Source: a phage
Strand: one strand, 5' to 3'
Sequence record: PZ534534.1
Length of the DNA: 64,000 nt
The notes under the pieces are model-generated. The model saw nothing but the letters and a program-made list of their open reading frames with translations, did no database searches and was not told the origin of the DNA. A program made the translations under genes and the position numbers. Of this stretch, positions 42,725-56,435 are shown one piece after another; positions within the stretch are counted from its first letter, which is position 1, and each line of letters starts with the position of its first letter.

Positions 42725-43200
42725 AGTATAAGGGGGATTTCTAAAATGGATTTCCTCCTTTTGATATTTCACCGGGCTGGATATTTTAAAATTCTTAGAA
42801 AATCAGAAAATGGATCGAAAACTAAAATGGATTTTTCAGAGTAGGCGCGACAAGCTGAATAGCTCATCCTATCGTTTGCACCATATTCCAGACCACCATT
42901 ATAGATTTCCCACACATGCTAACCTCCCTCTACTAGAACTTCCTCCACTTACCCTTGACCTTCTATGGTAACAATCTAACCACTATCTTGAAGTTGCGGT
43001 GCAGCTTTCCAGGTACTCGATCTACTTTTCATTCCAGGGCTTGGATTTTCTGAAAATTTTTCTCGATAAATTTCTCAGTACTCGATCTGTTTTTCGTTTT
43101 CTGAATCGGATTTTCTGGAAATCGTTCCGGATCTCGACCTGAAATTTTTGGGGACGAAATCTATTTTTCGTTTTCAGAAATGGATTTTTAAAATTTCTAT
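42725..43200. repeat. iteron-like direct-repeat region (GGATTTTC[T/G]GAAA and TACTCGATCT...TTTTCGTTTTC units)
   Basis: At least six GGATTT(T/C)-containing units plus duplicated TACTCGATCT and TTTTCGTTTTC blocks in AT-rich gene-free DNA, read directly. Confidence 0.5.
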
Positions 43201-43665
43201 ATGGGAATATTTTATGGGGCACTGTTTTATAGGAAATTGTTACGGAGGGTAATTAGCATGCTAATTAAATTTATTAAATGCGAGGGATTCTTATTTAGAA
43301 TTTTGAATGATAATTATTCTCGTTTGCAGAATAACGGGCAGGCCCGGTGATTGTCTCCCGGCCCCTGCTGCCCCGGCTTGTTATTATAGTATCACACAGG
43401 ACAAAGAAGGCAAGGATTTTTTGCATAAATTTTTAAATGATAATGATAACCGTTCTCATTTTATGAAGCGCCCATCCCCGGTGGTTGTCTCCCCCGTCAC
43501 CGGTGCCTGCCGTCCTTTCGATAGGTATATTATGCCGCCTGGCGGGGCCGCTGTCAACACTTTTCAAAAAATTTTTCTAACCTGATGCGCTAACCGTTGC
43601 AACCTGGCGGGGCCAGCCTGGCAGGTCCGCACTATAAAGTAAACAGCTACAGAAGAGGTACAAAA

Positions 43666-43842
43666 ATGAAAGGTAATGCTACTCGCCTGGGAAATGTAGT
43701 GATTAATGATACGGAAGCTATCGCCCTGGTTGAAAAGGTTATGGCGGGAGCGTTGGAACATAAAGAAGAGTACGAAAAAAAATGGTGGTTAACCTGGCGG
43801 GGGGCGGCAGGTGGATTCTATCATAAAAATAATTTAAAATAG
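43666..43842 (+). CDS. small early protein (58 aa)
   Basis: ATG after AGAAGAGG RBS (track start 43597 lies in GC-rich repeat). Confidence 0.45.
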   Translation: MKGNATRLGNVVINDTEAIALVEKVMAGALEHKEEYEKKWWLTWRGAAGGFYHKNNLK

Positions 43843-43844
43843 TC

Positions 43845-43874
43845 GTTGACAACAAGGTTAATCATGGTATTATT
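43845..43874 (+). promoter_or_regulatory. sigma70-type promoter (TTGACA-18-TATTAT)
   Basis: Read directly; track ORF start 43846 falls inside this promoter. Confidence 0.5.
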
Positions 43875-43923
43875 ACCCTACAAGGTGAACAACACCGCAC
43901 TAACCAGTAAAGAGGATAAATTT

Positions 43924-44121
43924 ATGAACGCATACGGGATCAAAGTACGTCGCAACACTCGCCAGGTGGTCACCAATCAAGTGATTTGCCGGGTGGATGT
44001 AACCATTAACAACGGGCAAGGCCTTTATAAATTTCGTCGCGGTCATAGCTATACCCTGCAACAGCTTGATCGTTGCGCCCTGACAAAAGGACAGATCAAC
44101 CACTGGTTTAATAAAAAATAA
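43924..44121 (+). CDS. small early protein (65 aa)
   Basis: ATG after AAGAGGA RBS downstream of promoter. Confidence 0.5.
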   Translation: MNAYGIKVRRNTRQVVTNQVICRVDVTINNGQGLYKFRRGHSYTLQQLDRCALTKGQINHWFNKK

Positions 44122-44124
44122 GTA

Positions 44125-44153
44125 TTGACATATAGTCCGACACCAAATACACT
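44125..44153 (+). promoter_or_regulatory. sigma70-type promoter (TTGACA-17-TACACT)
   Basis: Read directly upstream of 44186 gene. Confidence 0.5.
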
Positions 44154-44185
44154 AAAAGCACAAAAGACACTAAGAGGATAAAATC

Positions 44186-44584
44186 ATGAAAACCACTACC
44201 TTTAATTTTGATAATGCGGACTTTTCTTTTTCTGATGTCAAGAACTGCCGCCGTGATCGTGGATTTTACAAGGCTTATAATCTGGTGGGCCTGGACGATG
44301 ACAATAATTTGCACGAAGTAGCTGAGATCCGGTATTATGCCGCCGCCAGCGGGAACACTCACTACTGCGTGTTTTGGATTCACGACAACAAGAACAATAA
44401 GTACGGTTATACTGGCGGCAAGGCGAGCGGTCACGGTTACGATAAAGCTAACGCAGCACTTGAGGGCGCATTAAATGCTATGGGGATCACTGCCGACGGC
44501 TGGATCTACGAAGAAGAGTTTTTGTCGGCACTTGCTGACCACCTGGGCTATAAAAAACACATTGTAACATGTGCCCACGAATAA
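44186..44584 (+). CDS. early protein (132 aa)
   Basis: AAGAGGA RBS. Confidence 0.55.
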   Translation: MKTTTFNFDNADFSFSDVKNCRRDRGFYKAYNLVGLDDDNNLHEVAEIRYYAAASGNTHYCVFWIHDNKNNKYGYTGGKASGHGYDKANAALEGALNAMGITADGWIYEEEFLSALADHLGYKKHIVTCAHE

Positions 44585-44668
44585 AAAATTATTGACACGC
44601 TGCAAAATTCAAGTAAACTATACACAAAAGGCGGGAATGTTTCCCGCCAACACAAAGGAAAAAAGATC

Positions 44669-45064
44669 ATGAATAAGAACGTACGCCGCATCATGAACGA
44701 ACTGGCAAACGATGAAAAAATTATTGATATGCATTTGGTCAACATTTGCCACCGTTGTGTAACATACAACAACCGCGCCGCGAAAGCGCGTGAGATGAAC
44801 GCAAAAGGCACCTTAAAGCCCTTTCAGGTGGTTGTAAAATCTATAACTAGCGCAGCAGGCCAGGCGCATGACCACAACAACGAGAGCGCTAATATTGATC
44901 CGTCTTACGTAATGAAACGGATCCGGACTTGCAAGAATAAAGAGCAGGTGTATAACGTCATAGATTGGCTGGACTCCCTGGGCGATGTGGTTTACAATAG
45001 GTTTTCTGCAGCTATTGAGATTCAGTTAGACAGGTTGGACGGGAAAGTACTGAAAACTTACTGA
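44669..45064 (+). CDS. early protein (131 aa)
   Basis: 5' leader hairpin GCGGGAA-TGT-TTCCCGC then ACACAAAGGA RBS. Confidence 0.55.
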   Translation: MNKNVRRIMNELANDEKIIDMHLVNICHRCVTYNNRAAKAREMNAKGTLKPFQVVVKSITSAAGQAHDHNNESANIDPSYVMKRIRTCKNKEQVYNVIDWLDSLGDVVYNRFSAAIEIQLDRLDGKVLKTY

Positions 45065-45065
45065 G

Positions 45066-45111
45066 TTTATTTTTAGATGGCCTTGACTCCAGGGCCATCA
45101 ATAAAGTAAAC
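45066..45111 (+). repeat. conserved about 46-bp regulatory element, copy 1 (UP-like A/T tract + GATGGCC-TTGACTCCA-GGCCATC palindrome + AATAAAGTAAAC)
   Basis: Near-identical copies at 45688 and 49405; palindrome contains TTGACT. Confidence 0.6.
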
Positions 45112-45144
45112 TAACCACAGTTGAGCGGAAAGGGGGGCTTAAAG

Positions 45145-45264
45145 ATGAGTACTACACGCCAGCACACAAAGGTAACTATTATCGTTTGCATCATTGGGTA
45201 CATCCTGGCGCAAATGTTGATGGGTAGCGCCAACGGTGTCGCAAAATTTTTCTTAAACTTTTAA
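45145..45264 (+). CDS. small hydrophobic peptide (39 aa), absent from ORF track
   Basis: ATG after AAAGGGGGG RBS; IIVCIIGYILAQMLMG hydrophobic core; translated by hand. Confidence 0.35.
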   Translation: MSTTRQHTKVTIIVCIIGYILAQMLMGSANGVAKFFLNF

Positions 45265-45292
45265 TTGACAAGCTAACTTAAATCGATATAAT
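45265..45292 (+). promoter_or_regulatory. sigma70-type promoter (TTGACA-16-TATAAT)
   Basis: Read directly; followed by AAACGGGAAAACTTCCC leader hairpin. Confidence 0.55.
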
Positions 45293-45343
45293 AAGCACAT
45301 AAACGGGAAAACTTCCCAGAATACACAAAAGGAGAAAAACACC

Positions 45344-45685
45344 ATGACTACTATGACCGCCGCAGAAAAAGCTATGCAGATCGCTGAACTGAAAAAACAG
45401 ATCGCAGACCTTGAGAATAAGATCGATAACTTTGAAATCGACGAGGACAAGTACGACGAAAACTATGATGAATGGTTAGACGAGATCTACGGCGAAATTA
45501 TGATCGGAAACATTTCTTTTCTTCCGTCGCGTATCCTCAAGGAGTTAGATCCTATCGCTTACCGCTGCGGATTTAGCGACTACATCGACAGCCTGGATAT
45601 TGAGGACGATGAAGAATACCAGGAATTGCAGACAGAGCTGGAAGAAATGAAAGAAGAGCTTTCAGAGCTGGAAGAAAACGAGTAA
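45344..45685 (+). CDS. acidic coiled-coil early protein (113 aa)
   Basis: AAAGGAGAAAAAC RBS; heptad-like Glu/Leu-rich sequence. Confidence 0.55.
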   Translation: MTTMTAAEKAMQIAELKKQIADLENKIDNFEIDEDKYDENYDEWLDEIYGEIMIGNISFLPSRILKELDPIAYRCGFSDYIDSLDIEDDEEYQELQTELEEMKEELSELEENE

Positions 45686-45687
45686 AA

Positions 45688-45733
45688 TTTATTTTTAGAT
45701 GGCCTTGACTCCAGGGCCATCAATAAAGTAAAC
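45688..45733 (+). repeat. conserved about 46-bp regulatory element, copy 2
   Basis: Identical core to copy 1. Confidence 0.6.
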
Positions 45734-45772
45734 TTTACACTGTTAACACTGAACTAATGAGGAGTTAAAACC

Positions 45773-46018
45773 ATGGCAGCACTAATCACAAAATATTATG
45801 CGCCCACCAACACCAAAAGCGCCCGTATCATGGTAAAAGGCTTCGGACGTAAAAAGGTTTACACCTGGGATTATGCCTTAGACACGGAAGACAACTACAC
45901 CAACGCGATGACCGATTTTATTAATGATCTGAACACGCGGATCTTGACAAATTATAAAATTACCGATATTGCCTATATAGGGGAAGGCGGGATCTGTTTT
46001 GTCGGTATCGTCAAATAA
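45773..46018 (+). CDS. early protein (81 aa)
   Basis: TIR GGAGTTAAAACCATGGC identical to that of 50019 gene. Confidence 0.55.
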   Translation: MAALITKYYAPTNTKSARIMVKGFGRKKVYTWDYALDTEDNYTNAMTDFINDLNTRILTNYKITDIAYIGEGGICFVGIVK

Positions 46019-46093
46019 GCTGTTTTTTCGGTGGTCCTGGTAGCAGGGCCATCTATAAAGACAGTTTATCAACACAATGAAAGGAGAAAGTAC

Positions 46094-46447
46094 ATGATCA
46101 GCGGGGCAAGTTTTATTATTGGCGCTATTGCTACGGCTTTAATTGTAAACAAGATCCAATCTAAAAACGAAAAAGAGAGCAACGCGCTCACAGAATACCC
46201 ATTTTGGGTATTCAACGACAATGAAGACTACATTATCAAGTACAAGAATGAGAAGGGCGACCAGGTAACACCGCGACCGATCCCGGCTTACAAAATGCAG
46301 GAAACACTATACCGCCTAAAGGCTGGGGGCGCAAAAATTGTAGACTTTTGGGGATACGATCACACAGATCAGGAAGTTATAAAGCGCCGTATCCGGGCTA
46401 TTCAGGCCAATATTGAAGTTAGCAAGGGGGGAATATATGAAAATTAA
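46094..46447 (+). CDS. membrane-anchored early protein (117 aa)
   Basis: ATG after AAGGAGAAAG; N-terminal TM helix ISGASFIIGAIATALIV (track start 46031 lies in upstream palindrome). Confidence 0.5.
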   Translation: MISGASFIIGAIATALIVNKIQSKNEKESNALTEYPFWVFNDNEDYIIKYKNEKGDQVTPRPIPAYKMQETLYRLKAGGAKIVDFWGYDHTDQEVIKRRIRAIQANIEVSKGGIYEN

Positions 46448-46634
46448 TTTCGAGAAAATTGTAAAGCGCCCTCATGATTCCGAAGAGCTGCCAGAACGCC
46501 GCCAGCGTAACAATAAACTGAATAAGCCAAAAAGGTTTGGGAAGATCTGGCGTAATCATTATGATCGTAAATTGCCCGGCCTACTTTTGGAACGTGAACG
46601 ACAGGCAGAACGATACCGCCATAAAGACAAATAA
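46437..46634 (+). CDS. small basic early protein (65 aa)
   Basis: ATG after AAGGGGGG; Arg/Lys-rich. Confidence 0.45.
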   Translation: MKINFEKIVKRPHDSEELPERRQRNNKLNKPKRFGKIWRNHYDRKLPGLLLERERQAERYRHKDK

Positions 46635-46641
46635 CAACCAA

Positions 46642-46672
46642 CGCCCCGCCATTGTGCGGGGCTTTTTATTTC
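46642..46672 (+). terminator. rho-independent terminator
   Basis: GCCCCGC-cattgt-GCGGGGC hairpin followed by TTTTTATTT. Confidence 0.7.
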
Positions 46673-46792
46673 TATCCTACGAATAGCGCCCCTGGTTGGC
46701 CCTGTAAGCGCCAAAAAGGCCCCCACCTATGCAATCGCCCCCTTTAACCTGAAAACATCGCCCAAGGCCGTTTTATGGCGTTAAAAATATCA

Positions 46793-46820
46793 TTGACATC
46801 GTCAACAGGTTAGCTATACT
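46793..46820 (+). promoter_or_regulatory. sigma70-type promoter (TTGACA-16-TATACT)
   Basis: Read directly. Confidence 0.55.
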
Positions 46821-46852
46821 AACCACATCAAAGAGAGAAAGGAGTAAACGCC

Positions 46853-47113
46853 ATGCGTAAATTAAAAAATTTTGATAAAGTTGATGTTGTCCTGAATAAT
46901 TTTTACTACTGCAACAACAAGGCTATTTGGTGGCGTGATAGTTCCACCGATAAAGTCAAGGCGCGCTTTCTCCAGGGGCACTGGCAAGGCCGCCCAGTGA
47001 TTAAAATCATGGGGCAATTGGTAGCGTTTAAAAATTGCCGCCGTGTTGATGACGTTGAGGAGATTTTAAACATTTTGCGCCACAATAATTTAAAAAATAG
47101 TGTTGACAAGTAA
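46853..47113 (+). CDS. early protein (86 aa)
   Basis: AAAGGAG RBS. Confidence 0.55.
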   Translation: MRKLKNFDKVDVVLNNFYYCNNKAIWWRDSSTDKVKARFLQGHWQGRPVIKIMGQLVAFKNCRRVDDVEEILNILRHNNLKNSVDK

Positions 47114-47129
47114 ATCTTGATAAGTATAC
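47102..47129 (+). promoter_or_regulatory. sigma70-type promoter (TTGACA-16-TATACT) overlapping end of upstream gene
   Basis: Read directly; followed by AAACGGGAAAACTTCCCG leader hairpin. Confidence 0.55.
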
Positions 47130-47187
47130 TTAAACACGTAAACGGGAAAACTTCCCGCCACTAACAAAGAAAACAGGAGAAAATATC

Positions 47188-47811
47188 ATGACCACCGTTA
47201 ACATTACCACAGGTTACAATTTATCTTTCGACGTGCTGACCGACGAACAAAAAGAAAAAGCCATTGAAATGGTACGCGAAAGAGAAGAACACAGCGGGGA
47301 TGACTTTTTTGCAGAAAGTGTAATTGAACACTACAAAGAATATATCTTTCCAGAGTACGGCCTTGAAGATACCGAAGTACATTGGTCCGGCTTTTGGTGC
47401 CAGGGTGACGGCGCTTCAATCAGTGCTGAAAACGTGGATTTAGAAAAATTTTTGCGTAAAGTAAAGGCCCTGACCAAGTTCCGATCAATTCGTCACTTGT
47501 TCGGCACAATGCACGATGGCGAGTTATCAGCCAGTGTTGAACGCGACAAGTACAGCCATTACAGCCATGAAAACACTGTAAGCGGATACATTGATACCAC
47601 CTGGCTAGATCTGACCGCCAAACAAGAAAACAAAGTGGAAGACCTGGAAGAGCTGATCACCGAGACGGTACGGGAGCTATCCCGCAAGGTTTACGTAGAC
47701 CTGGAGGGGGCCTATCTTGAACAATTCACTACCGAAAACCTGATCGGCCTTATCGAGGCCAATGATTGGCGGTTTGATGTGGATGAAGATGGCGAGATGA
47801 CTTTTTCATAA
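47188..47811 (+). CDS. early protein (207 aa)
   Basis: ACAGGAGAAAA RBS; acidic. Confidence 0.6.
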   Translation: MTTVNITTGYNLSFDVLTDEQKEKAIEMVREREEHSGDDFFAESVIEHYKEYIFPEYGLEDTEVHWSGFWCQGDGASISAENVDLEKFLRKVKALTKFRSIRHLFGTMHDGELSASVERDKYSHYSHENTVSGYIDTTWLDLTAKQENKVEDLEELITETVRELSRKVYVDLEGAYLEQFTTENLIGLIEANDWRFDVDEDGEMTFS

Positions 47812-47901
47812 ATAAAGTGTTGCAATAACCTAAAAACCTGCTATATTAAAACTCAAGGGGGCAAGACGTTTGCCCCCACACAAAACAAAGAGGAAAACAT
47901 C

Positions 47902-48282
47902 ATGAAAAACACTACTAAAGCTATTGACACCGTTATGTTTAACCTGGTTACCTTTCGCGAGGATATGAAAGATCTTCCGCGTGAAACAGTGTGCGACCAT
48001 ATCGAAAACTATCGCAAACTAATCAAAGAGTTGCCTTTAAAACGTGATCAGTATGCGGCTAACGCCATGCTTAATGCCATGATCAAAAAGATGATCCAGT
48101 GTGATTTAACTCTAGCCTATGATTATGCGGGTGGTCGTTTTGCAGTATACAATCAGCCCGTGCCCGGTATGAGCACCACCGAAGAATTGCACGCGCTCAA
48201 TCTAAAACAAGACGTGTGGGATAGTATGCCTCGCGTGGTGGTATGGGTAGAAAGCGGAAAGATTTACGGCGATAATTTTTAA
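47902..48282 (+). CDS. early protein (126 aa)
   Basis: Leader hairpin GGGGGCAAGACGTTTGCCCCC + ACACAAAACAAAGAGGAAAAC RBS. Confidence 0.55.
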   Translation: MKNTTKAIDTVMFNLVTFREDMKDLPRETVCDHIENYRKLIKELPLKRDQYAANAMLNAMIKKMIQCDLTLAYDYAGGRFAVYNQPVPGMSTTEELHALNLKQDVWDSMPRVVVWVESGKIYGDNF

Positions 48283-48291
48283 TCAGGTAAC

Positions 48292-48316
48292 AGGCGGCAT
48301 ATTTGCCGCCTTATTG
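48292..48316 (+). terminator. rho-independent terminator
   Basis: GGCGGCA-tat-TGCCGCC hairpin followed by TTATTGTT. Confidence 0.6.
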
Positions 48317-48346
48317 TTAATCAGAACTGTAAAAGAGGTACATAGA

Positions 48347-48718
48347 ATGGAATTTATTATTTTGGCTGTATTGGTTGCCTTGTTTAACGCCTGGATCGCT
48401 GGCAAGATGGGAAGATCCGCCTTTTTATGGTTTATTATATCTATTTTCCTGGGGGTGGTTGCAACTATTGTATTGGTTATCCTTGCAATTGTTGACAAGG
48501 GGAATAATAGAAAGGGTAAAGTATTTTCAGACCTGTACGACGCTCAAACGTTTGTCAACGCCTATTATAGTGATCTTCCAGTCTCCCTACGTTGCAGCCT
48601 TGCACAACAGGTTTTCGATGAAGCTAAAACCAGAGATCACGCCCATGAGATTTGTTTAACTGAGGCGGATCGCTTATTTGAGAGGAATAGAAAATATGTG
48701 GGCCAGCCGTTTAAATAA
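48347..48718 (+). CDS. membrane protein (123 aa, two predicted TM segments)
   Basis: ATG after AAAAGAGG; MEFIILAVLVALFNAWIAG and FLWFIISIFLGVVATIVLVILAIV hydrophobic segments. Confidence 0.5.
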   Translation: MEFIILAVLVALFNAWIAGKMGRSAFLWFIISIFLGVVATIVLVILAIVDKGNNRKGKVFSDLYDAQTFVNAYYSDLPVSLRCSLAQQVFDEAKTRDHAHEICLTEADRLFERNRKYVGQPFK

Positions 48719-48937
48719 TACCACGTTAATTAATCCATTTAGTGAAGATTTGAGGCCAGCCGCCTGGCGGGATGGATTCAATAATGAAAGCTTTATTTTC
48801 AGGCCTGATCTTAAGGAATTTTATAACAATGGATCGAACAACGACAGAGATAATTTTTCTTGTAATGTGCGTGGTGATAATACTCCTGGGGGCCATTGCA
48901 AACCACGTCACTACTAACAGGAGGAAAGGGGGAGACG

Positions 48938-49057
48938 ATGACACCCAAGGATAAGCCCCGCACCGATAAGGCGCGCCGTGTTATGGTATGGCTGGAGATC
49001 ATCGCCCTTGAAATATTGTTAGGCGTAGGGATGTATTTTATCGCTGTACGCACCTGA
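48938..49057 (+). CDS. small membrane peptide (39 aa), absent from ORF track
   Basis: ATG after AGGAGGAAAGGGGGAG RBS; C-terminal TM WLEIIALEILLGVGMYFIAV; followed by terminator. Confidence 0.4.
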   Translation: MTPKDKPRTDKARRVMVWLEIIALEILLGVGMYFIAVRT

Positions 49058-49061
49058 TAAC

Positions 49062-49090
49062 GGCCCCCGATCCCTGGGGGCCTAACTTTT
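49062..49090 (+). terminator. rho-independent terminator
   Basis: GGCCCCC-gatccct-GGGGGCC hairpin followed by TAACTTTTC. Confidence 0.55.
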
Positions 49091-49113
49091 CAAAAAATTT
49101 TTCTTCCGGGGTG

Positions 49114-49141
49114 TTGCAATCCGGTCCAGAATATGGATAAT
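49114..49141 (+). promoter_or_regulatory. sigma70-type promoter with extended -10 (TTGCAA-16-TGGATAAT)
   Basis: Read directly; same AATATGGATAATA block recurs at 49951. Confidence 0.5.
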
Positions 49142-49201
49142 AACAATCAACGGGGAGACACTCCCCCACCACATAGACAAAGTTCCAAAAGGAGAAACAA
49201 A

Positions 49202-49402
49202 ATGAGCAACAATATCCGCGTTATTAACTTCAAAAAAGAAGAAAAAATTGCTGTGCTGGTTGATGGTCAAGAAATATTCAAGGGGTATTATGAAGATCAT
49301 CAGGTGGCGATCAGTATTACCCGCGTGATTGGTTATCATAATTTCTACCCCCAAGGCGCTGAGGCAGCAGTTAAACGAATCAAAGAGATTGTAGGCCTGT
49401 AA
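49202..49402 (+). CDS. small early protein (66 aa)
   Basis: ATG after AAAGGAGAAAC (track start 49133 upstream in same frame). Confidence 0.5.
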   Translation: MSNNIRVINFKKEEKIAVLVDGQEIFKGYYEDHQVAISITRVIGYHNFYPQGAEAAVKRIKEIVGL

Positions 49403-49404
49403 AA

Positions 49405-49450
49405 TTTATTTTTAGATGGTCTTGACTCCAGGACCATCAATAAAGTAAAT
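49405..49450 (+). repeat. conserved about 46-bp regulatory element, copy 3 (compensatory variant GATGGTC...GACCATC)
   Basis: Same element as copies 1 and 2, with paired substitutions that preserve the inverted repeat. Confidence 0.6.
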
Positions 49451-49493
49451 TTAAACCCTGTTAAAATAATCAGTGCAAAAAGGAGCAATGATC

Positions 49494-49793
49494 ATGTTTA
49501 TACCCGCCAATAATCTTTATTTCTTTGATGGTCAGATCGTAGACGGCGTGGAAGTTGAGATCACTGGATGTCAAGGCGGCCAGGTAATGATCTTCCGCAA
49601 TAGTGCATTTAACGATCAATTCATTACAATGACCATGGAAGTCAAAAAGCTGGACGATAAGAAGACACTCATTGACTATTCCGTGAAAGATCATCCAGAC
49701 TACCACATGATCTATGGTGATTTGTGCATTGTTGACCGTGACAAGGTGGGCGGCATTGTGATCGCTATTGTGAACGATGTTTTCTCTGAATAA
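49494..49793 (+). CDS. early protein (99 aa)
   Basis: ATG after AAAAGGAG. Confidence 0.5.
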   Translation: MFIPANNLYFFDGQIVDGVEVEITGCQGGQVMIFRNSAFNDQFITMTMEVKKLDDKKTLIDYSVKDHPDYHMIYGDLCIVDRDKVGGIVIAIVNDVFSE

Positions 49794-49933
49794 TTCCAGC
49801 AAATGATGCAAAATAAGGCCCATGGCAGGGCCTGCAGCGATATAATCACATAAAGGCTATGCGGTTGCATGGCCTTTATTATTTTGGCGCTACAGCGGCC
49901 CCCAAGGCGCTTAAAAAATTTTTAAAGAAGTAC

Positions 49934-49961
49934 TTGCATCAAGCCCTACAATATGGATAAT
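49934..49961 (+). promoter_or_regulatory. sigma70-type promoter with extended -10 (TTGCAT-16-TGGATAAT)
   Basis: Read directly upstream of 50019 gene. Confidence 0.5.
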
Positions 49962-50018
49962 AGGACGTGTCAGGGGGGCGGCCCCCAATCATTAACCGGA
50001 TAGATAGGAGTTAAAACC

Positions 50019-50303
50019 ATGGCTATTGTTACCGTTGGCGATGTAGTAGAAATGGAAGCAAAATACTTAAAAGCGGGTATGCATATCCTACGCAACGATC
50101 TTGAACTAGTCCTGACAATGGTTGACTATAATCCCGGTCAGGATTATCCAAGCATCGACTACTTTTTTGAGTATGTCGATGAAGAGCTAAAAGAGGATGA
50201 GGCCTATTGCGGTGAGTTCTGCAACTTCTTTTGTCCTGATGAGGTTGTAAAAGTTATCTATCAACCTGGCGTACCTTTCCCGCTGCATGCTATCAACAAA
50301 TAA
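50019..50303 (+). CDS. early protein (94 aa)
   Basis: AGGAGTTAAAACCATGGC TIR. Confidence 0.55.
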   Translation: MAIVTVGDVVEMEAKYLKAGMHILRNDLELVLTMVDYNPGQDYPSIDYFFEYVDEELKEDEAYCGEFCNFFCPDEVVKVIYQPGVPFPLHAINK

Positions 50304-50358
50304 ACCTGGCGGGGCCGAAAAGGCCCCCAATTATGAAAATAAAGAGAGGCAAATCATC

Positions 50359-50478
50359 ATGATGGAACAAATTAAACGCACCGAGGCTATTAATGGCAAC
50401 GTGATCTATTTTGTCAGCAATAACGAAAAAGGCGTACCCTATGCGGCGGTAATAGTACAACCTGACGGCGATTATTAG
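50359..50478 (+). CDS. small early peptide (39 aa)
   Basis: ATG after AGAGAGG downstream of GGGGCC-GAAAA-GGCCCC hairpin (track start 50287 upstream in same frame). Confidence 0.35.
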   Translation: MMEQIKRTEAINGNVIYFVSNNEKGVPYAAVIVQPDGDY

Positions 50479-50663
50479 TTTACTGTGTACGGCGCTTATT
50501 CTTTTGGGCGTCCGGTGCATGATAGAATTTTGAAAGTAGCGAACCCTACCGGGAAAAATATCACAGCAGAAAAATTTTTTGAAAATAGTTGACATGACCA
50601 TATAAGACTGTAGTATATAAATCAAAGGGGCAAGCCCCACCAACCACAAAGAGGATAAAAATC

Positions 50664-50843
50664 ATGGCTATTATTGCAAAGACTGAGATCGTAGGCTTGG
50701 ATTCTATTCTCCTCGCATATGAGGAAGCTATAGAAATGTATGTGGTTTCCTATGGTGAGTATATCCGTGAATATAAATCTATTGATCTGGCTTTTGAATG
50801 TTATATTCGCCAGGTTAATAAAGCGTACGATGATTATCGTTAA
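50664..50843 (+). CDS. small early protein (59 aa), absent from ORF track
   Basis: Leader hairpin GGGGCAAGCCCC + ACCACAAAGAGGATAAAAATC RBS + ATG; TTGACA promoter at 50589. Confidence 0.5.
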   Translation: MAIIAKTEIVGLDSILLAYEEAIEMYVVSYGEYIREYKSIDLAFECYIRQVNKAYDDYR

Positions 50844-50933
50844 AATAGTTTGAAAACAAACAACCATCTTACAAAGCATAATACATAAGGCGGTGGAATG
50901 GTCCGCCACCTGGAACAAGAAGAGGAAAACAAG

Positions 50934-51038
50934 ATGAAACAGAAATTAATTGATGCGGTGATCCTAGCTATTGCCCTGGGTATTGGCCTGATTGCAACCA
51001 TGTCTAATATGATCTTGTCTTCCAACGGTATCGGGTGA
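50934..51038 (+). CDS. small membrane peptide (34 aa), absent from ORF track
   Basis: AAGAAGAGGAAAAC RBS; hydrophobic AVILAIALGIGLIA. Confidence 0.35.
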   Translation: MKQKLIDAVILAIALGIGLIATMSNMILSSNGIG

Positions 51039-51047
51039 GGTTGGCAA

Positions 51048-51263
51048 ATGATCACTAACAAAACAGGCAAAACAGAATTTTTACGCAACTTACAGATCGG
51101 CAAGCCTGAGATCTGGTATTGCACTAAAACACCACGTGACGAAATGAAAGACTTCACCGCCACGCTGCAACGGGTAAAGATATCCATCACGCAGAAAAAG
51201 GCCTTATTAGTGGTGGAAGGTGAGATCCCCCAAACCGTTGTTATAGTTGAGCGTACAGCATAG
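51048..51263 (+). CDS. small early protein (71 aa)
   Basis: GAGGT RBS. Confidence 0.5.
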   Translation: MITNKTGKTEFLRNLQIGKPEIWYCTKTPRDEMKDFTATLQRVKISITQKKALLVVEGEIPQTVVIVERTA

Positions 51264-51354
51264 TTTAATTTATACCGATACCCGAAAATTAACCAACAAA
51301 GCATAAACAGGCGGTTACCGCCGCCTTAAACGTAGCAGAAAGAGGATAGACACA

Positions 51355-51639
51355 ATGAAAAAGATGATCGCAGTGGTTGCCCTAGTTGTTGGACTTAATG
51401 CGCCTGTAATGGCCAAAGAGCTGGCAAAAGAGGTTAATCTAACGGATATTCATGCCGTCAATCGAATCGGGGTTACTTATCGCTTATGCCTTGCCACTAA
51501 AACTTTTAAGGACGGCACAACAGAGTACTACGGATTCGAGGGTGTCCGGTGCGGTGAGCTTGCTCGCGACCTTAAGGAAGATCCAGACCTGGAAGATCTG
51601 CCCATCACCGTAAACGGTAAAGCTTACGTAAACCGTTAA
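51355..51639 (+). CDS. secreted small protein with signal peptide (94 aa)
   Basis: AAAGAGGA RBS; N-terminal MKKMIAVVALVVGLNAPVMA signal-peptide-like segment. Confidence 0.55.
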   Translation: MKKMIAVVALVVGLNAPVMAKELAKEVNLTDIHAVNRIGVTYRLCLATKTFKDGTTEYYGFEGVRCGELARDLKEDPDLEDLPITVNGKAYVNR

Positions 51640-51641
51640 CC

Positions 51642-51776
51642 ATGAGAAAGATAATCATCACCTTGGGGATTGTGGTGGCAATATTGGCGCTCTTTCCCCT
51701 TATGGTTAGGTATGTGCTGATCGGTATTGTCCTGGTAGTCAGTGATCTATTGGAAACGGTTGGCACCTTGTTTTAA
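51642..51776 (+). CDS. small membrane peptide (44 aa), absent from ORF track
   Basis: ATG 2 nt after upstream stop (coupled); two hydrophobic stretches. Confidence 0.3.
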   Translation: MRKIIITLGIVVAILALFPLMVRYVLIGIVLVVSDLLETVGTLF

Positions 51777-51788
51777 AGAGCGGTAAAA

Positions 51789-51980
51789 ATGAATATCGAA
51801 CAAGTTAGAAAGGTATTGGCGGTACTGCGTTATCATAATCATAGAAAGGTTATAGACGATCCTGATTATGTTGATTCAAGTCTGGAAGGGGATACACTGC
51901 AAGCCATAAGCAACATGCAAGAATTGCTAAAGCGCATGACAGAGAAAAACCGACCGGACTACATAGGCGAAAAAATATAA
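51789..51980 (+). CDS. small early protein (63 aa)
   Basis: ORF from track; weak terminator-like hairpin follows. Confidence 0.45.
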   Translation: MNIEQVRKVLAVLRYHNHRKVIDDPDYVDSSLEGDTLQAISNMQELLKRMTEKNRPDYIGEKI

Positions 51981-52192
51981 TATTTATAAACTACAAAACA
52001 GGGCTTGCAATGGTCCTGTTTTTTGTTATACTTGTTTCACGGCAGGCACCTGGCGACAGGGGGAGACAATCACCGGGTGTGCCTGCTATATAAAAACTAT
52101 AAAAACCGTTGACATCTGCCAGGTGGTGGGGTAGCATTTATCTCGAAGGGGGCAAAAGCGCCCACACAACAACCGGAAGAGAGGAAAACGCC

Positions 52193-52465
52193 ATGTTAAG
52201 CTGGATTAACCAAGAAGTTGAATCACGTTTTAATGCTATTTGGGATCTCATCGAAAAAGAGGACGGAACATCAAGCCCTTATCTCAATAATCTTGAATTC
52301 CATTTCGTGGAAGCGATGAACGCAGAACATGATCACGAAGGTGGTGCGGATGAATTCGCTAAAGGATATGGCTTCAACAATGCCAACGAAATGATCGAGG
52401 CGGTTGTACTCCAGGCTGAGGAAGATTATCAATTAAAAACGCTTGAATTCTGCCGCCGTAAGTAA
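52193..52465 (+). CDS. early protein (90 aa)
   Basis: ATG after GGAAGAGAGGAAAAC preceded by leader hairpin (track start 52109 lies in promoter). Confidence 0.5.
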   Translation: MLSWINQEVESRFNAIWDLIEKEDGTSSPYLNNLEFHFVEAMNAEHDHEGGADEFAKGYGFNNANEMIEAVVLQAEEDYQLKTLEFCRRK

Positions 52466-53699: not shown

Positions 53700-56098
53700 C
53701 TCTTCTCCTACCATAAACGGCCCTACCTGGCAAGTGGAATAATTGACTAGCTATTAATCCCACACACTGTACAAATATACATGGAAAATAACTATTGCAT
53801 AATTTTTCATTGTGTGGTAGCAAGGCCATTTTTGCCCGTTTTCTCTCCCAAAATTGCACGTAATGCCGCTATTGCATAAATTTTAACCTGATGCATATCT
53901 TCAATATCTTGTCAACAAATAAAAATTCTTATAAGTCATACACTTACACAACATCGAAAGCGTGTCCTATGCGAAAAATCGAGTATAACTATAGCCGCCA
54001 GATTTCAGAATTTACGTACGCTCACCATTCTATAGCTTGCTAAGTATTTATTCCAACCATAGAATAACGGAATAGTCAATACCTGCATAAAATAATTATT
54101 CGTTTAAATTGCATAACATAAATCAGCTCAGGTGTCAACATTTTTCGTAAACAGTCCGAAATTGTCACGGCAAGTTATCATAAGCAGAGAAATCTTTAGT
54201 CGTCTAATGTTTACTGTACGTTACTATACTAACTGGAATCATTAGATGACTAACAGAAAGATAAGAAATAATTAATAATGTAATTGTTTTACCTGTAACA
54301 ATAAGGCAACTATGCAAACGAATGGCATGGCGCGACGGAGTCGCGACATAATATAAAAGCAGTAACCATCACCCCCGTGATAGTTTGTCTGCAAACTATT
54401 AATCAGATCATAGTTGCCTTGTATTTAGTTAATCATGACATAACAAGCAAGGCAACTATAGATCTGCTAATAGTTGCCCTGCTTTTATATTATGTCATAT
54501 ATTATTAACTTGTTAATTGTTAACTTGCTAATTGTTTTCATGCAAACGAATGTCATGGCTTATCATATCTGTGTAAACTGTCAAGGTGTAAACAGTCTAT
54601 GCGGGAACAATCTATACGTGAACAGTGAAACATGAAATAATAACAGTCGTTATTGTGCCATATTGTGTCCGGTGTGTCAGACAAGTTTTTCTCCTCTTTG
54701 TCAAGTGCTGCATGAAAAATTTACAAACTGGTATGGTAGCATTTTTGCGGCCCTGTTTACATTCAGCGATGTATGTATAATCCTTGTTGTGTGGGCGTTT
54801 AGACGTCTAGACGGTTGGAAGTCTGCAGGTCAATATCTAATCTATTGGCTGCTAACTATATCCCACACAAATAGTAAGAAATATGATTGTTATATGCGTA
54901 AACTGTAACTCATGTTATCAATCCCTGTATGTATCGCCAGTGGTGCGCATAATGGGTATTATGTTAAATTGCCCGTAATGATAACTATTCTCACAATGAT
55001 AGGTATTCTCATTCACCCCCACAAGATAGGTTGCAAATGTTGTGCCACTGTGTGAACGGCCTCACCTATTAATTTGCCTCACTGCCTCGATATTTGAGAA
55101 TTATTATAAGAATGAGAAGTATTCCCATTTCGTCCGCCTGGCAGCACTCCAGTCGCTACCGCTCATGACAGGGCAGAACTAGACCCTCTTCAGATATTTC
55201 TGGCTGACTCTTCAGGTCTGTGTGGGAAAAGCCAACCTCTCCGGCGGGGAAGGGGAGGTCAATTAAAAAATTTACGTGGTGTATGAAGCGCTCTTCAGGT
55301 AAGGCATGTGTTATGGGATGAAACCCTCTTCAGGCAATGATATTTGTGGGTGTGATATTTGCTGGAAAGCCAGATATGACGGGACTCCCGGCGGGGCAGG
55401 GGTAGTACAGACAAGGAAAATGTGGGGATGTGGTGGGAGTAAATTGATCAGACAGGTAGAGTATGGAATATGTTACAGGTATGTTAAATAGGGAGGCTGA
55501 ATATCTGTAAGATTTGTGTGTAAAATCAAAGACTTAAGTGGTGTTGTGGTATTTTCTATAAATAATTCAAGTTTAATAGGTAATATTTGTCTCTATCCGC
55601 CTTGTGTGGTAAACAGATTCAGATGAGATTGGTTTACAAGTGTATACATAATATACAAATTAAAGATACAAGAAACCCCCCTCCCCCTTCGGCTACCATT
55701 CACCTTTTCCTCTGACTGGTACTTAAACACTTATTCAGACTCTTCAGGTTATCACCCATATATCATATGGCAGTGACTGGTGTCCTCCGGCCACTCTTTC
55801 GTCACCCGTCCGCTTCGCCATGCTAATGCCATAGCCAATGGTTCGGTTGTTCACCCTGTTCACTCAGGTGTATCTCCATACCCCTTCAAACCGAAGAGAA
55901 CAGAAAACCCGAATTACTCGGTAAAAGAAAAGAGAAGAACTTAATTTTATCAGGATAGGCAAGAATGTCAAGGCATGACTGCTCACTAAACAAGCAAACA
56001 GTCATGTGTGGGAGGTAAGTGATTGTGGTGGTAGGAAATTTAGTTGAAAGATGTGTTATAGGTGCTTCCAGCACTTTAGCCGGGCAGCTAATTGTGTG
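53700..56098. other. 2.4-kb gene-free strand-switch region with nested palindromes and iterated motifs (candidate replication origin / regulatory hub)
   Basis: No convincing ORF on either strand; inverted repeats, direct repeats and six CTCTTCAGG copies read directly. Confidence 0.5.
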
Positions 56099-56395
56099 TC
56101 AGTCCAGCGGTTCATCCTCTACTTCACTGAAATCAATATTCATGGTCTCTTCCCAACCATCGATCTCAGCACAAGAGTGGAGTTCTTTAGGGTTTACTCC
56201 CAAAGCCTCAGCAACAGAGTCTATATTTAACACCTCTGGCAGGTATGATTCATCGAATTCAAGGTAAATCAGGCCACGAGTGTTGTCAGCCCCACCAAAT
56301 ATTTCTATCTTCATAAAATCTCCTCTGGGAATGAGAGTGTGAACAGGGTTTTATACGTTCCAATGCACAAGAATTATACACGTTTGCCTCTTCAG
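55186..56395 (+). repeat. six dispersed copies of CTCTTCAGG-type motif, all in same orientation
   Basis: Copies at about 55186, 55208, 55291, 55326, 55740, 56387, read directly. Confidence 0.5.
56099..56314 (-). CDS. small acidic protein (71 aa)
   Basis: GAGGAG RBS 6 nt upstream on minus strand. Confidence 0.5.
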   Translation of the reverse strand: MKIEIFGGADNTRGLIYLEFDESYLPEVLNIDSVAEALGVNPKELHSCAEIDGWEETMNIDFSEVEDEPLD

Positions 56396-56435
56396 GCCAT
56401 GCTTTAGCATGAGGAACCTGTGTGGGCTCGGTGCT

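Follow-up and report, generated by a model that had tools for sequence, protein, structure and literature searches.

We found that three GC-rich sequences in a 64,000-nucleotide (nt) stretch of phage DNA (sequence record PZ534534.1; the whole stretch is called the window) are paralogous members of a widely conserved family of non-coding elements. The stretch belongs to an rV5-like coliphage (Vequintavirus): a 3-kb query around the element copies matched 122 phage records, the best of which were Escherichia phages naswa and EmilHeitz (97.8% identity, both Vequintavirus). Judging from sequence features, we saw about an even chance that each copy is coupled to an early sigma-70 promoter and is read outward, as a promoter-proximal leader or a non-coding RNA. 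The three copies, designated A, B, and C, are as follows.

43328..43400, minus strand (putative transcribed strand, G-rich sense): copy A, with its core at 43344-43359 on the plus strand; the locus type is that of Erwinia phage Hena1 and Salmonella phage SSE121.
43468..43515, minus strand: copy B, with its core at 43478-43493 on the plus strand; a partial match to the covariance model (17 bits).
52036..52092, plus strand (G-rich sense): copy C, with its core at 52061-52076 and CCGGTG... on the minus strand; orthologues occur in two subfamilies.

The core is the 16-mer CCGGTG(A/G)TTGTCTCCC, i.e., CCGGTGRTTGTCTCCC, which occurred exactly three times in the 64 kb, at 43344-43359 (+), 43478-43493 (+), and 52061-52076 (-); no fourth site was added when up to three mismatches were allowed. 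The similarity extended further, with 78% complementarity over 37 nt between copies B and C and 86% over 29 nt between copies A and C, and the block GGTGCCTGCCGT was present in both B and C. A 78-nt covariance model built from 18 relatives scored copy C at 96.9 bits, copy A at 32.1 bits (E 4e-5, all 78 positions), and copy B at 17 bits (partial, E 0.23), and with filters off it detected no further copy in the whole window. By a rough estimate, about one repeated exact 16-mer pair is expected by chance in 64 kb; what makes the copies significant is that there are three of them, that their similarity reaches past the core, and that other phages have conserved them. Copy A could be aligned to the long Certrevirus form of the element, with a deletion between short GAA repeats. 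The covariance-model matches had a GC content of 0.51-0.70 compared with a local value of ~0.43, and the exact 16-mer was found three times; the original prediction, which had been made from the letters of this DNA, was therefore right in the positions, orientations, and GC-richness that it gave for the three elements.

The family was conserved at defined loci. We counted 124 records with copy C and 122 with the A/B region, and the copies occupied the same loci in essentially all of the ~120 Vequintavirus genomes. With a 141-nt query from a Certrevirus-like phage, the element was found in 278 phage records of the Vequintavirinae (Vequinta-, Certre-, Seuna-, and Henunavirus) and the Stephanstirmvirinae (Phapecocta- and Justusliebigvirus), the hosts of which include Escherichia, Salmonella, Klebsiella, Cronobacter, Enterobacter, Pectobacterium, Pantoea, and Erwinia. 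Between genera, the match was an island of usually 50-140 nt with 75-90% identity, and in the annotated records that we inspected it lay either in gaps between annotated genes of the early small-gene region or under short open reading frame (ORF) calls that varied with the record. Two locus types recurred. At C-type loci, the element followed the terminator of a small gene, with CCGGTG... antisense to the neighboring genes, and the gene upstream encoded the same 63-amino-acid (aa) protein, phrog_9599, in Vequintavirus, Phapecoctavirus, and Salmonella phage SSBI34. At A-type loci, represented by copy A, Hena1, and SSE121, a palindrome was joined directly to GAATA(A/G)C(G/A)GGCAGG..CCGGTG; in Pectobacterium phage CB7, the palindrome and the 5' part were kept, and everything past CCGGTGTTT was lost. 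The other genera carried one or two copies with no bracketing arrangement. BLAST could detect the element at about two places per genome. We took copy C to be the ancestral locus.

Rfam 15 contained no match at the gathering threshold, with only weak, unrelated noise at E up to 10, and a transfer RNA and transfer-messenger RNA search found nothing. A host origin was ruled out, as 5,426 complete E. coli genomes contained no match. Scanning IMG/VR with the bare 16-mer yielded mostly chance matches in the HK97-type capsid gene of prophages, tighter patterns yielded relatives only, and in a metagenome scan 8 of 127 were relevant among the matches listed. The element family appears to be undescribed so far: no description was found in the literature searched, and a Certrevirus paper reports a sigma-70-like early promoter consensus and does not describe the element (PMC7344957).

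The region around copies A and B had also been called as a gene, and the original prediction had taken this ORF to be probably a mere reflection of the repeats.

43307..43585, plus strand: 92-aa ORF, not a gene, spanning copies A and B; relatives carry a frameshift or stops.

We came to the same view, since the ORF is frameshifted in phage EdH4 and holds two in-frame stops in a metagenomic relative; it is annotated inconsistently across records. It has nevertheless been called often enough to make the family phrog_14993, so that at least one PHROG family rests on a non-coding control region and its annotation is hereby corrected. Copies A and B sit in a 700-bp control region without genes.

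The second line of evidence came from promoters. With a rule like that of the tool scan described below, we scanned 25 element instances, taken from the window and from 20 other loci that represent different lineages and locus types. A sigma-70-type promoter was found on the G-rich strand in all 25, and the distance between the end of its -10 hexamer and the core was 29 nt (17 instances), 27 nt (5 instances), or 36 nt (3 instances); at a random site, a promoter-like -10 end 25-38 nt upstream is found in only 3-4%. This set includes A-type loci (Hena1, SSE121, and locus L044) whose spacers cannot be aligned with those of C-type loci. On the opposite strand, promoters were found in 5 of the 25, at scattered distances. 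These results showed that the distance from promoter to core is fixed. In the window, the sites relevant to the three copies are as follows.

43529..43557, minus strand: promoter TTGACA-17-CATAAT reading into copy B, with the -10 ending 36 nt from the core; 11/12 positions, with an A/T-rich upstream tract.
43383..43413, minus strand: promoter-like TTGCCT-16-(TG)TACTAT reading into copy A, with the -10 ending 27 nt from the core; found in our own scan.
51995..52022, plus strand: intrinsic terminator of the 63-aa gene (51789-51980, phrog_9599), with T-runs on both sides in this phage.
52005..52032, plus strand: promoter P1, TTGCAA-16-TATACT with an extended -10 TG (TGtTATACT), with the -10 ending 29 nt from the core of copy C.
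52109..52137, plus strand: promoter P2, TTGACA-17-TAGCAT, downstream of copy C; it feeds the gene at 52193-52465 and equals the annotated P168 of phage rV5.

Two of the three window promoters (43557-43529 on the minus strand and 52005-52032 on the plus strand) were found independently by the tool scan, which gave no other promoter-like site than 43557-43529 in 42800-43800. The site upstream of copy A overlaps a perfect TATAAT at 43388-43383, and the -35 of P1 is located in the loop of the upstream terminator. Across genera, the -10 of C-type loci kept TGnTATnnT and changed only at hexamer positions 4-5, the least important two. The C-type spacing was 29 nt at most loci and 27 nt in tuntematon, and in one lineage it was preserved by two compensating indels (-1 and +1) in the interval from core to promoter. 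At A-type loci, no annotated gene lay downstream in the G-rich sense; thus, these promoters have nothing else to express. Since a promoter stands at a fixed distance, the element is very probably transcribed, most probably in the G-rich sense as judged from the predicted promoters.

The conservation is one of primary sequence. The hairpin that we modeled had GCAGGCA/TGCCTGC as its outer stem and CCGGTG/CGCC-GG as its inner stem, and its pairs were counted on 32 distinct sequences. One pair showed G-C to A-U changes. A conserved hairpin was rejected, because its pairs were no better than in shuffled sequences and were equal on both strands. For individual copies, the hairpin GCAGGCAC/GTGCCTGC of copy C was more stable than expected (z = -3.3, with 0 of 200 shuffles equally stable), and neither copy A nor copy B was more stable than its shuffles, whichever strand was folded. 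The hairpin is a lineage-specific feature of copy C, and the claim that each element is internally palindromic held for copy C only. The proposal of structured RNA elements was partly supported, in that transcription is very probable; a conserved secondary structure found no support.

These observations can be combined into a putative mechanism. Each copy would lie just downstream of a promoter on the G-rich strand, and the core RNA ...CAGGGGGAGACAAUCACCGG... would begin near position +22 in the transcript. Reading would go leftward for copies A and B and rightward for copy C, which would explain the inverted-repeat arrangement. As copy C lies after the terminator of the 63-aa gene and before P2, the element would form a 5' leader only in transcripts from P1. 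The core would then act as a linear sequence signal instead of a hairpin, and either RNA polymerase or an RNA-binding factor would recognize it shortly after the polymerase has left the promoter. As for the class of mechanism, our guess, which we considered less likely than not on its own, was a leader signal like lambda nut or a short early non-coding RNA; it would mark the transcripts of a few promoters for a different fate, such as terminator read-through, stability, or factor sequestration.

Several observations weigh against this explanation. All promoters and start sites are consensus predictions, and the C-type spacing may be partly attributable to shared ancestry of the whole 78-nt unit instead of selection. 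In the G-rich sense, the element is not followed by a terminator, the leftward transcripts from copies A and B would run head-on into plus-strand genes, and no lambda boxA/boxB-like sequence was recognized by eye, a formal search not having been made. The RNA structure gave no help: only 64% of the cells of the modeled hairpin pair, 466 of 500 shuffles were at least as good, and the totals were 267 and 268 of 415 on the two strands. Moreover, in the long-form hairpin of Certre- and Seunavirus (CCGG-GCCU-CCUG-loop-CGGG-AGGU-CCGG), C-to-U changes that form G-U pairs are tolerated only in the C-rich sense, which keeps the antisense-RNA alternative alive.

Many copies, including most of those in other genera, are adjoined by a palindrome of 7-1-7 layout that may add a regulator to this scheme.

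43308..43322, both strands: 7-1-7 palindrome TGATAATTATTCTCG next to copy A; Fur-box-like, a putative operator.
43444..43458, both strands: 7-1-7 palindrome TGATAACCGTTCTCA next to copy B; 11/12.

Hena1 and SSE121 carry the perfect form TGAGAATCATTCTCA at the same place as the site beside copy A. The consensus from relatives was TGA(G/T)AAnnnTTCTCA, which was perfect in Hena1, SSE121, and one Certrevirus-like metagenomic contig; some lineages had TGATAG-n7-CTATCA in its place. Seven of the 11 matches in the window fell in two gene-free stretches (43051, 43308, and 43444; 54979, 54997, 55095, and 55113), matches of at least 11/12 numbered 3 against 0.28 expected, and the equivalent 1.7-kb gap of Certrevirus DU_PP_IV (L123, 229-1915) contained about eight. 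The layout is that of the Fur box, both beside copies A and B and beside most other-genus copies: the 7-1-7 form (TGATAATnATTATCA) was matched at 12/14 positions and the E. coli 19-mer (GATAATGATAATCATTATC) at 14-16/19, with 16/19 for the site at 43439, and AATGATAAYnATTCTCA, which agrees with 14-16/19 Fur positions, was enriched over Markov controls. However, the phage consensus differs systematically from the Fur box, with symmetric G/C replacing T/A (TGAGAA/TTCTCA), and the likeness is a feature of the neighboring palindrome, not of the GC-rich element. From their sequence, the palindromes are probably operators for a dimeric regulator, for which host Fur is a candidate, and the protein bound to them would gate the locus.

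A more far-reaching version of the explanation, which we considered rather improbable as a whole, is that the core is a new promoter-coupled RNA or non-template-strand signal, which either functions in the manner of nut/put or makes up an early decoy RNA, common to rV5-like and phi92-like phages of many enterobacterial hosts and gated by Fur-type 7-1-7 operators. If this were true, the early non-coding transcript of a virulent phage would be tuned to the iron status of the host or to a Fur-like regulator that the phage itself encodes. Phages of the rV5-like and phi92-like groups have been isolated widely, and therapy cocktails and the BASEL collection make use of them; their early regions are annotated as hypothetical proteins only, with regulatory RNAs or operators undescribed. 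The conserved island, the fixed promoter distance, and the Fur-like palindromes offer a testable handle on the control of early transcription.

Comparison with known systems gave partial likenesses. Like lambda nut (boxA/boxB) and HK022 put, the element occurs in few copies in the leader just downstream of early promoters (here predicted) and is oriented with them; its copies on divergent transcripts form an inverted pair, the region is dense with intrinsic terminators, and part of it is a linear conserved sequence with flanks that vary by lineage. It differs from nut and put in lacking a boxA/boxB recognizable by eye, an identified N-like protein, and a conserved secondary structure; the last point makes a put-type structured RNA unlikely. 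Copies A and B also have no genes downstream in their direction; antitermination is a putative role. Promoter-early stem-loop (PeSL) cassettes, reportedly described for T4-type phages by Arbiol and colleagues in 2010, are likewise short conserved modules of early promoter and hairpin repeated among small early genes, and one mosaic junction lies inside the element (in L188, described below). However, PeSLs are numerous per genome and flank individual ORFs, whereas the element has 1-3 copies, an exactly conserved transcribed core downstream of the promoter, orthologous loci in two subfamilies, and a stem-loop that is significant only in copy C; the PeSL-like 57-nt cassettes of the window (45066, 45688, and 49405) are a distinct sequence family. 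With P22 sar, lambda OOP, and Hfq-type small RNAs, the element shares an intergenic unit with a terminator common to a convergent gene, and a C/U-rich conserved stretch able to pair with a Shine-Dalgarno-like sequence; it differs from them in having a promoter on the C-rich strand in only 5/25 instances and in having no Rfam match.

This last comparison corresponds to an alternative that we considered unlikely, in which the functional product is a small RNA of the C-rich sense (5'-...CCGGUGAUUGUCUCCCCCUG...), ~90 nt long for copy C and ending at the bidirectional terminator. The palindromic operator would overlap its promoter, and its C/U-rich core would be complementary to Shine-Dalgarno-like sequences and pair with them; the RNA could act cis-antisense to the G-rich leader or in trans. 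Copy C in this sense indeed presents a 5' hairpin, an A-rich linker, and a terminator with a U-run; a seed-like core together with a terminator occurs in copy C and most genera, the U-run is found in most genera, and in several lineages a -10-like hexamer (TATTCT or CATTAT) shares positions with the operator; the C-to-U changes in the Certre- and Seunavirus hairpin also keep its pairing in this sense alone. The best non-self complement in the window was the ribosome-binding site (RBS) of a 39-aa membrane-peptide gene at 48938-49057 (AAGGGGGAGACGAUG, -32.8 kcal/mol), which is conserved in Vequintavirus relatives. However, a 12-bp complement is estimated to be near chance level in 128 kb, and the 39-aa gene is restricted to Vequintavirus while the element is far more widespread. 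In addition, C-rich-sense promoter-like sites were few and scattered, the likely start for copy C would fall within the 5' arm of its own hairpin, Certrevirus has no U-run after the hairpin, and the hairpin lacks covariation support. Our own first reading, a Fur-regulated small RNA in the CCGGUG sense, was weakened because the "Fur box" is a general palindrome and the promoters are consistently on the other strand. A role at the DNA level, as a protein-binding site in the initially transcribed region or as a transcription-primed replication origin, also seemed improbable, and slightly more so. Conservation of primary sequence only and the fixed promoter distance are consistent with it; the origin version would join a strong promoter, a G-cluster RNA, and an R-loop beside AT-rich repeats and protein-binding palindromes, and copies A and B indeed fire toward AT-rich tandem repeats (43003-43188) among 7-1-7 palindromes, a layout of repeats, palindrome, element, and promoter that recurs in Hena1 and SSE121. 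On the other hand, a non-palindromic site of 16-30 nt would be unusual for a dimeric DNA-binding protein, nucleation of an R-loop would not require an exactly conserved sequence, and neither gene orientation nor GC skew pointed to an origin at 43 or 52 kb, positions that both lie within a long co-oriented plus-strand block.

The remaining alternatives were far weaker. The original prediction had suggested that the elements are recombination scars or sites for inversion or exchange that flank a mobile cassette, the segment between them being ~8.7 kb; we regarded this idea as essentially excluded. The inverted orientation of the copies, the chimeric copy in L188, which shows that homologous exchange occurred inside the conserved core at least once, and the other promoter/hairpin cassettes repeated in the region speak for it. 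However, the copies stood at the same loci in the ~120 Vequintavirus genomes, with no presence/absence polymorphism of the segment such as an IS- or MITE-like cassette would show, and related genera carried one or two copies without bracketing and without the bracketed segment. For inversion, a synthetic B/C inversion-junction query matched 126 records as two separate halves only, none of them covering at least 80%, and the native junctions gave single contiguous alignments across the A/B and C sites in dozens of relatives. Pfam and PHROG searches with 18 ORF products, encoded near the copies or inside the segment and representing part of its small ORFs, gave no recombinase family, no informative match, and no functional assignment, and the core is not palindromic, unlike the ~26-bp imperfectly palindromic crossover sites of Gin, Hin, and Cin. 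Nor do the elements bracket the mini-gene cluster, as had been proposed: they lie within the small-gene region, which extends beyond them on both sides in an ORF run spanning ~41-54.9 kb. Equally improbable was that the core is the start of a 12-15-aa peptide (GTG ATT GTC TCC CCC TGT ... giving M-I/V/F-V/I-S/F-P-C-x-Q-V-P-A/P-V). Most C-type copies retain an ORF of 12-15 codons, and several differences between genera look synonymous (CCT/CCC/CCG, GTG/GTC/GTT/GTA, CAA/CAG, and TGT/TGC). However, it has no Shine-Dalgarno sequence and a GTG start in a GC-rich stretch, and copies A and B would yield unrelated products of 29-34 aa. We rejected this reading because a 1-nt shift (CR3-like/Seunavirus) and a 2-nt deletion (tuntematon) change the frame and leave the nucleotides CAGGTGCC.../GTGCCGCCCGTT conserved. 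A relationship to ToxI or pseudo-ToxI was also rejected, since the Certrevirus ToxI-like repeats have a different locus and a different sequence.

The chimera just mentioned is a copy C on a human-gut metagenome contig of 136,967 bp (L188, 4899-4976), which is rV5-like 5' of the core and Phapecoctavirus-like 3' of it and in the terminator. Its sequence shows recombination between subfamilies within the conserved core, which can thus act as a crossover point; this is ordinary mosaicism and no evidence for a cassette. Around the element, a ~90-bp segment with a promoter (TTGTCAAATTTATTT...TGTATAAAT) and the palindrome TAAAACGCGTTTTA was found in opposite orientations relative to the element in different genera (L125 2830-2915 and L158 2390-2500 versus L156 2330-2420, L155 2330-2420, and L291 430-520), which is either an inversion fixed in evolution or possibly a real promoter switch.

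In the window, the larger ORFs from ~14.7 kb to 55 kb were nearly all on the plus strand, with small co-oriented ORFs at ~41-54.9 kb, and from ~57 kb ORFs were on the minus strand; in relatives, the small-gene region is annotated almost wholly as hypothetical proteins. Directly left of copy A, 43003-43188 contains three tandem AT-rich repeats of 65-74 nt with the motifs TCTCGAT, GAAAATTTTTC, and GTTTTCAGAA, one of which holds the palindrome-like site at 43051. From their sequence these repeats look like iterons, and similar motifs adjoin the A-type element in Hena1 and SSE121 (L285 and L286, 430-560). An ORF-poor stretch of ~1.5 kb at 54900-56400, where the plus- and minus-strand gene blocks converge, contains two pairs of 7-1-7 palindromes (54979/54997 and 55095/55113, with 18 bp between the members of each pair), repeated CTCTTCAGG units (55186-55339 and 56387), and two CCGGCGGGG(A/C)AGGGG motifs (55241 and 55388). 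This stretch may serve as a major control region or may specify a long non-coding RNA. The motif CYGGCGGGG was found, so far on the plus strand, at 43538, 43603, 48763, 50305, 55245, and 55384, often within promoter spacers or beside GGGGCC-GAAAA-GGCCCC hairpins.

The 57-nt cassette TTTATTTTTAGATGGCCTTGACTCCAGGGCCATCAATAAAGTAAAC occurs at 45066-45122, 45688-45744, and 49405-49461, with a diverged form at 46024-46060 (82-100% identity), and consists of a hairpin with a TTGACT -35 hexamer in its loop and, after the hairpin, a -10-like box. As a mediator of gene shuffling here, the cassette is a stronger candidate than the GC-rich element. The 39-aa gene at 48938-49057 (phrog_13629; 119 records, Vequintavirus only) encodes MTPKDKPRTDKARRVMVWLEIIALEILLGVGMYFIAVRT, which has a basic N-terminus and one transmembrane helix and, from its sequence, looks like a type I toxin or a holin; its RBS AAGGGGGAGACGATG closely resembles the G-rich core of the element. 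Finally, ToxI-like repeats, known from Certrevirus phiTE, were found at 143739-143809 in DU_PP_I, 144049-144117 in DU_PP_IV, and 141138-141201 in CB7. Near-perfect copies of the 36-nt ToxI repeat (of the ToxIN abortive infection system) were present in 200 phage records, mostly of Klebsiella phages, and ToxI mimicry thus seems to be far more widespread than the single published phiTE case.

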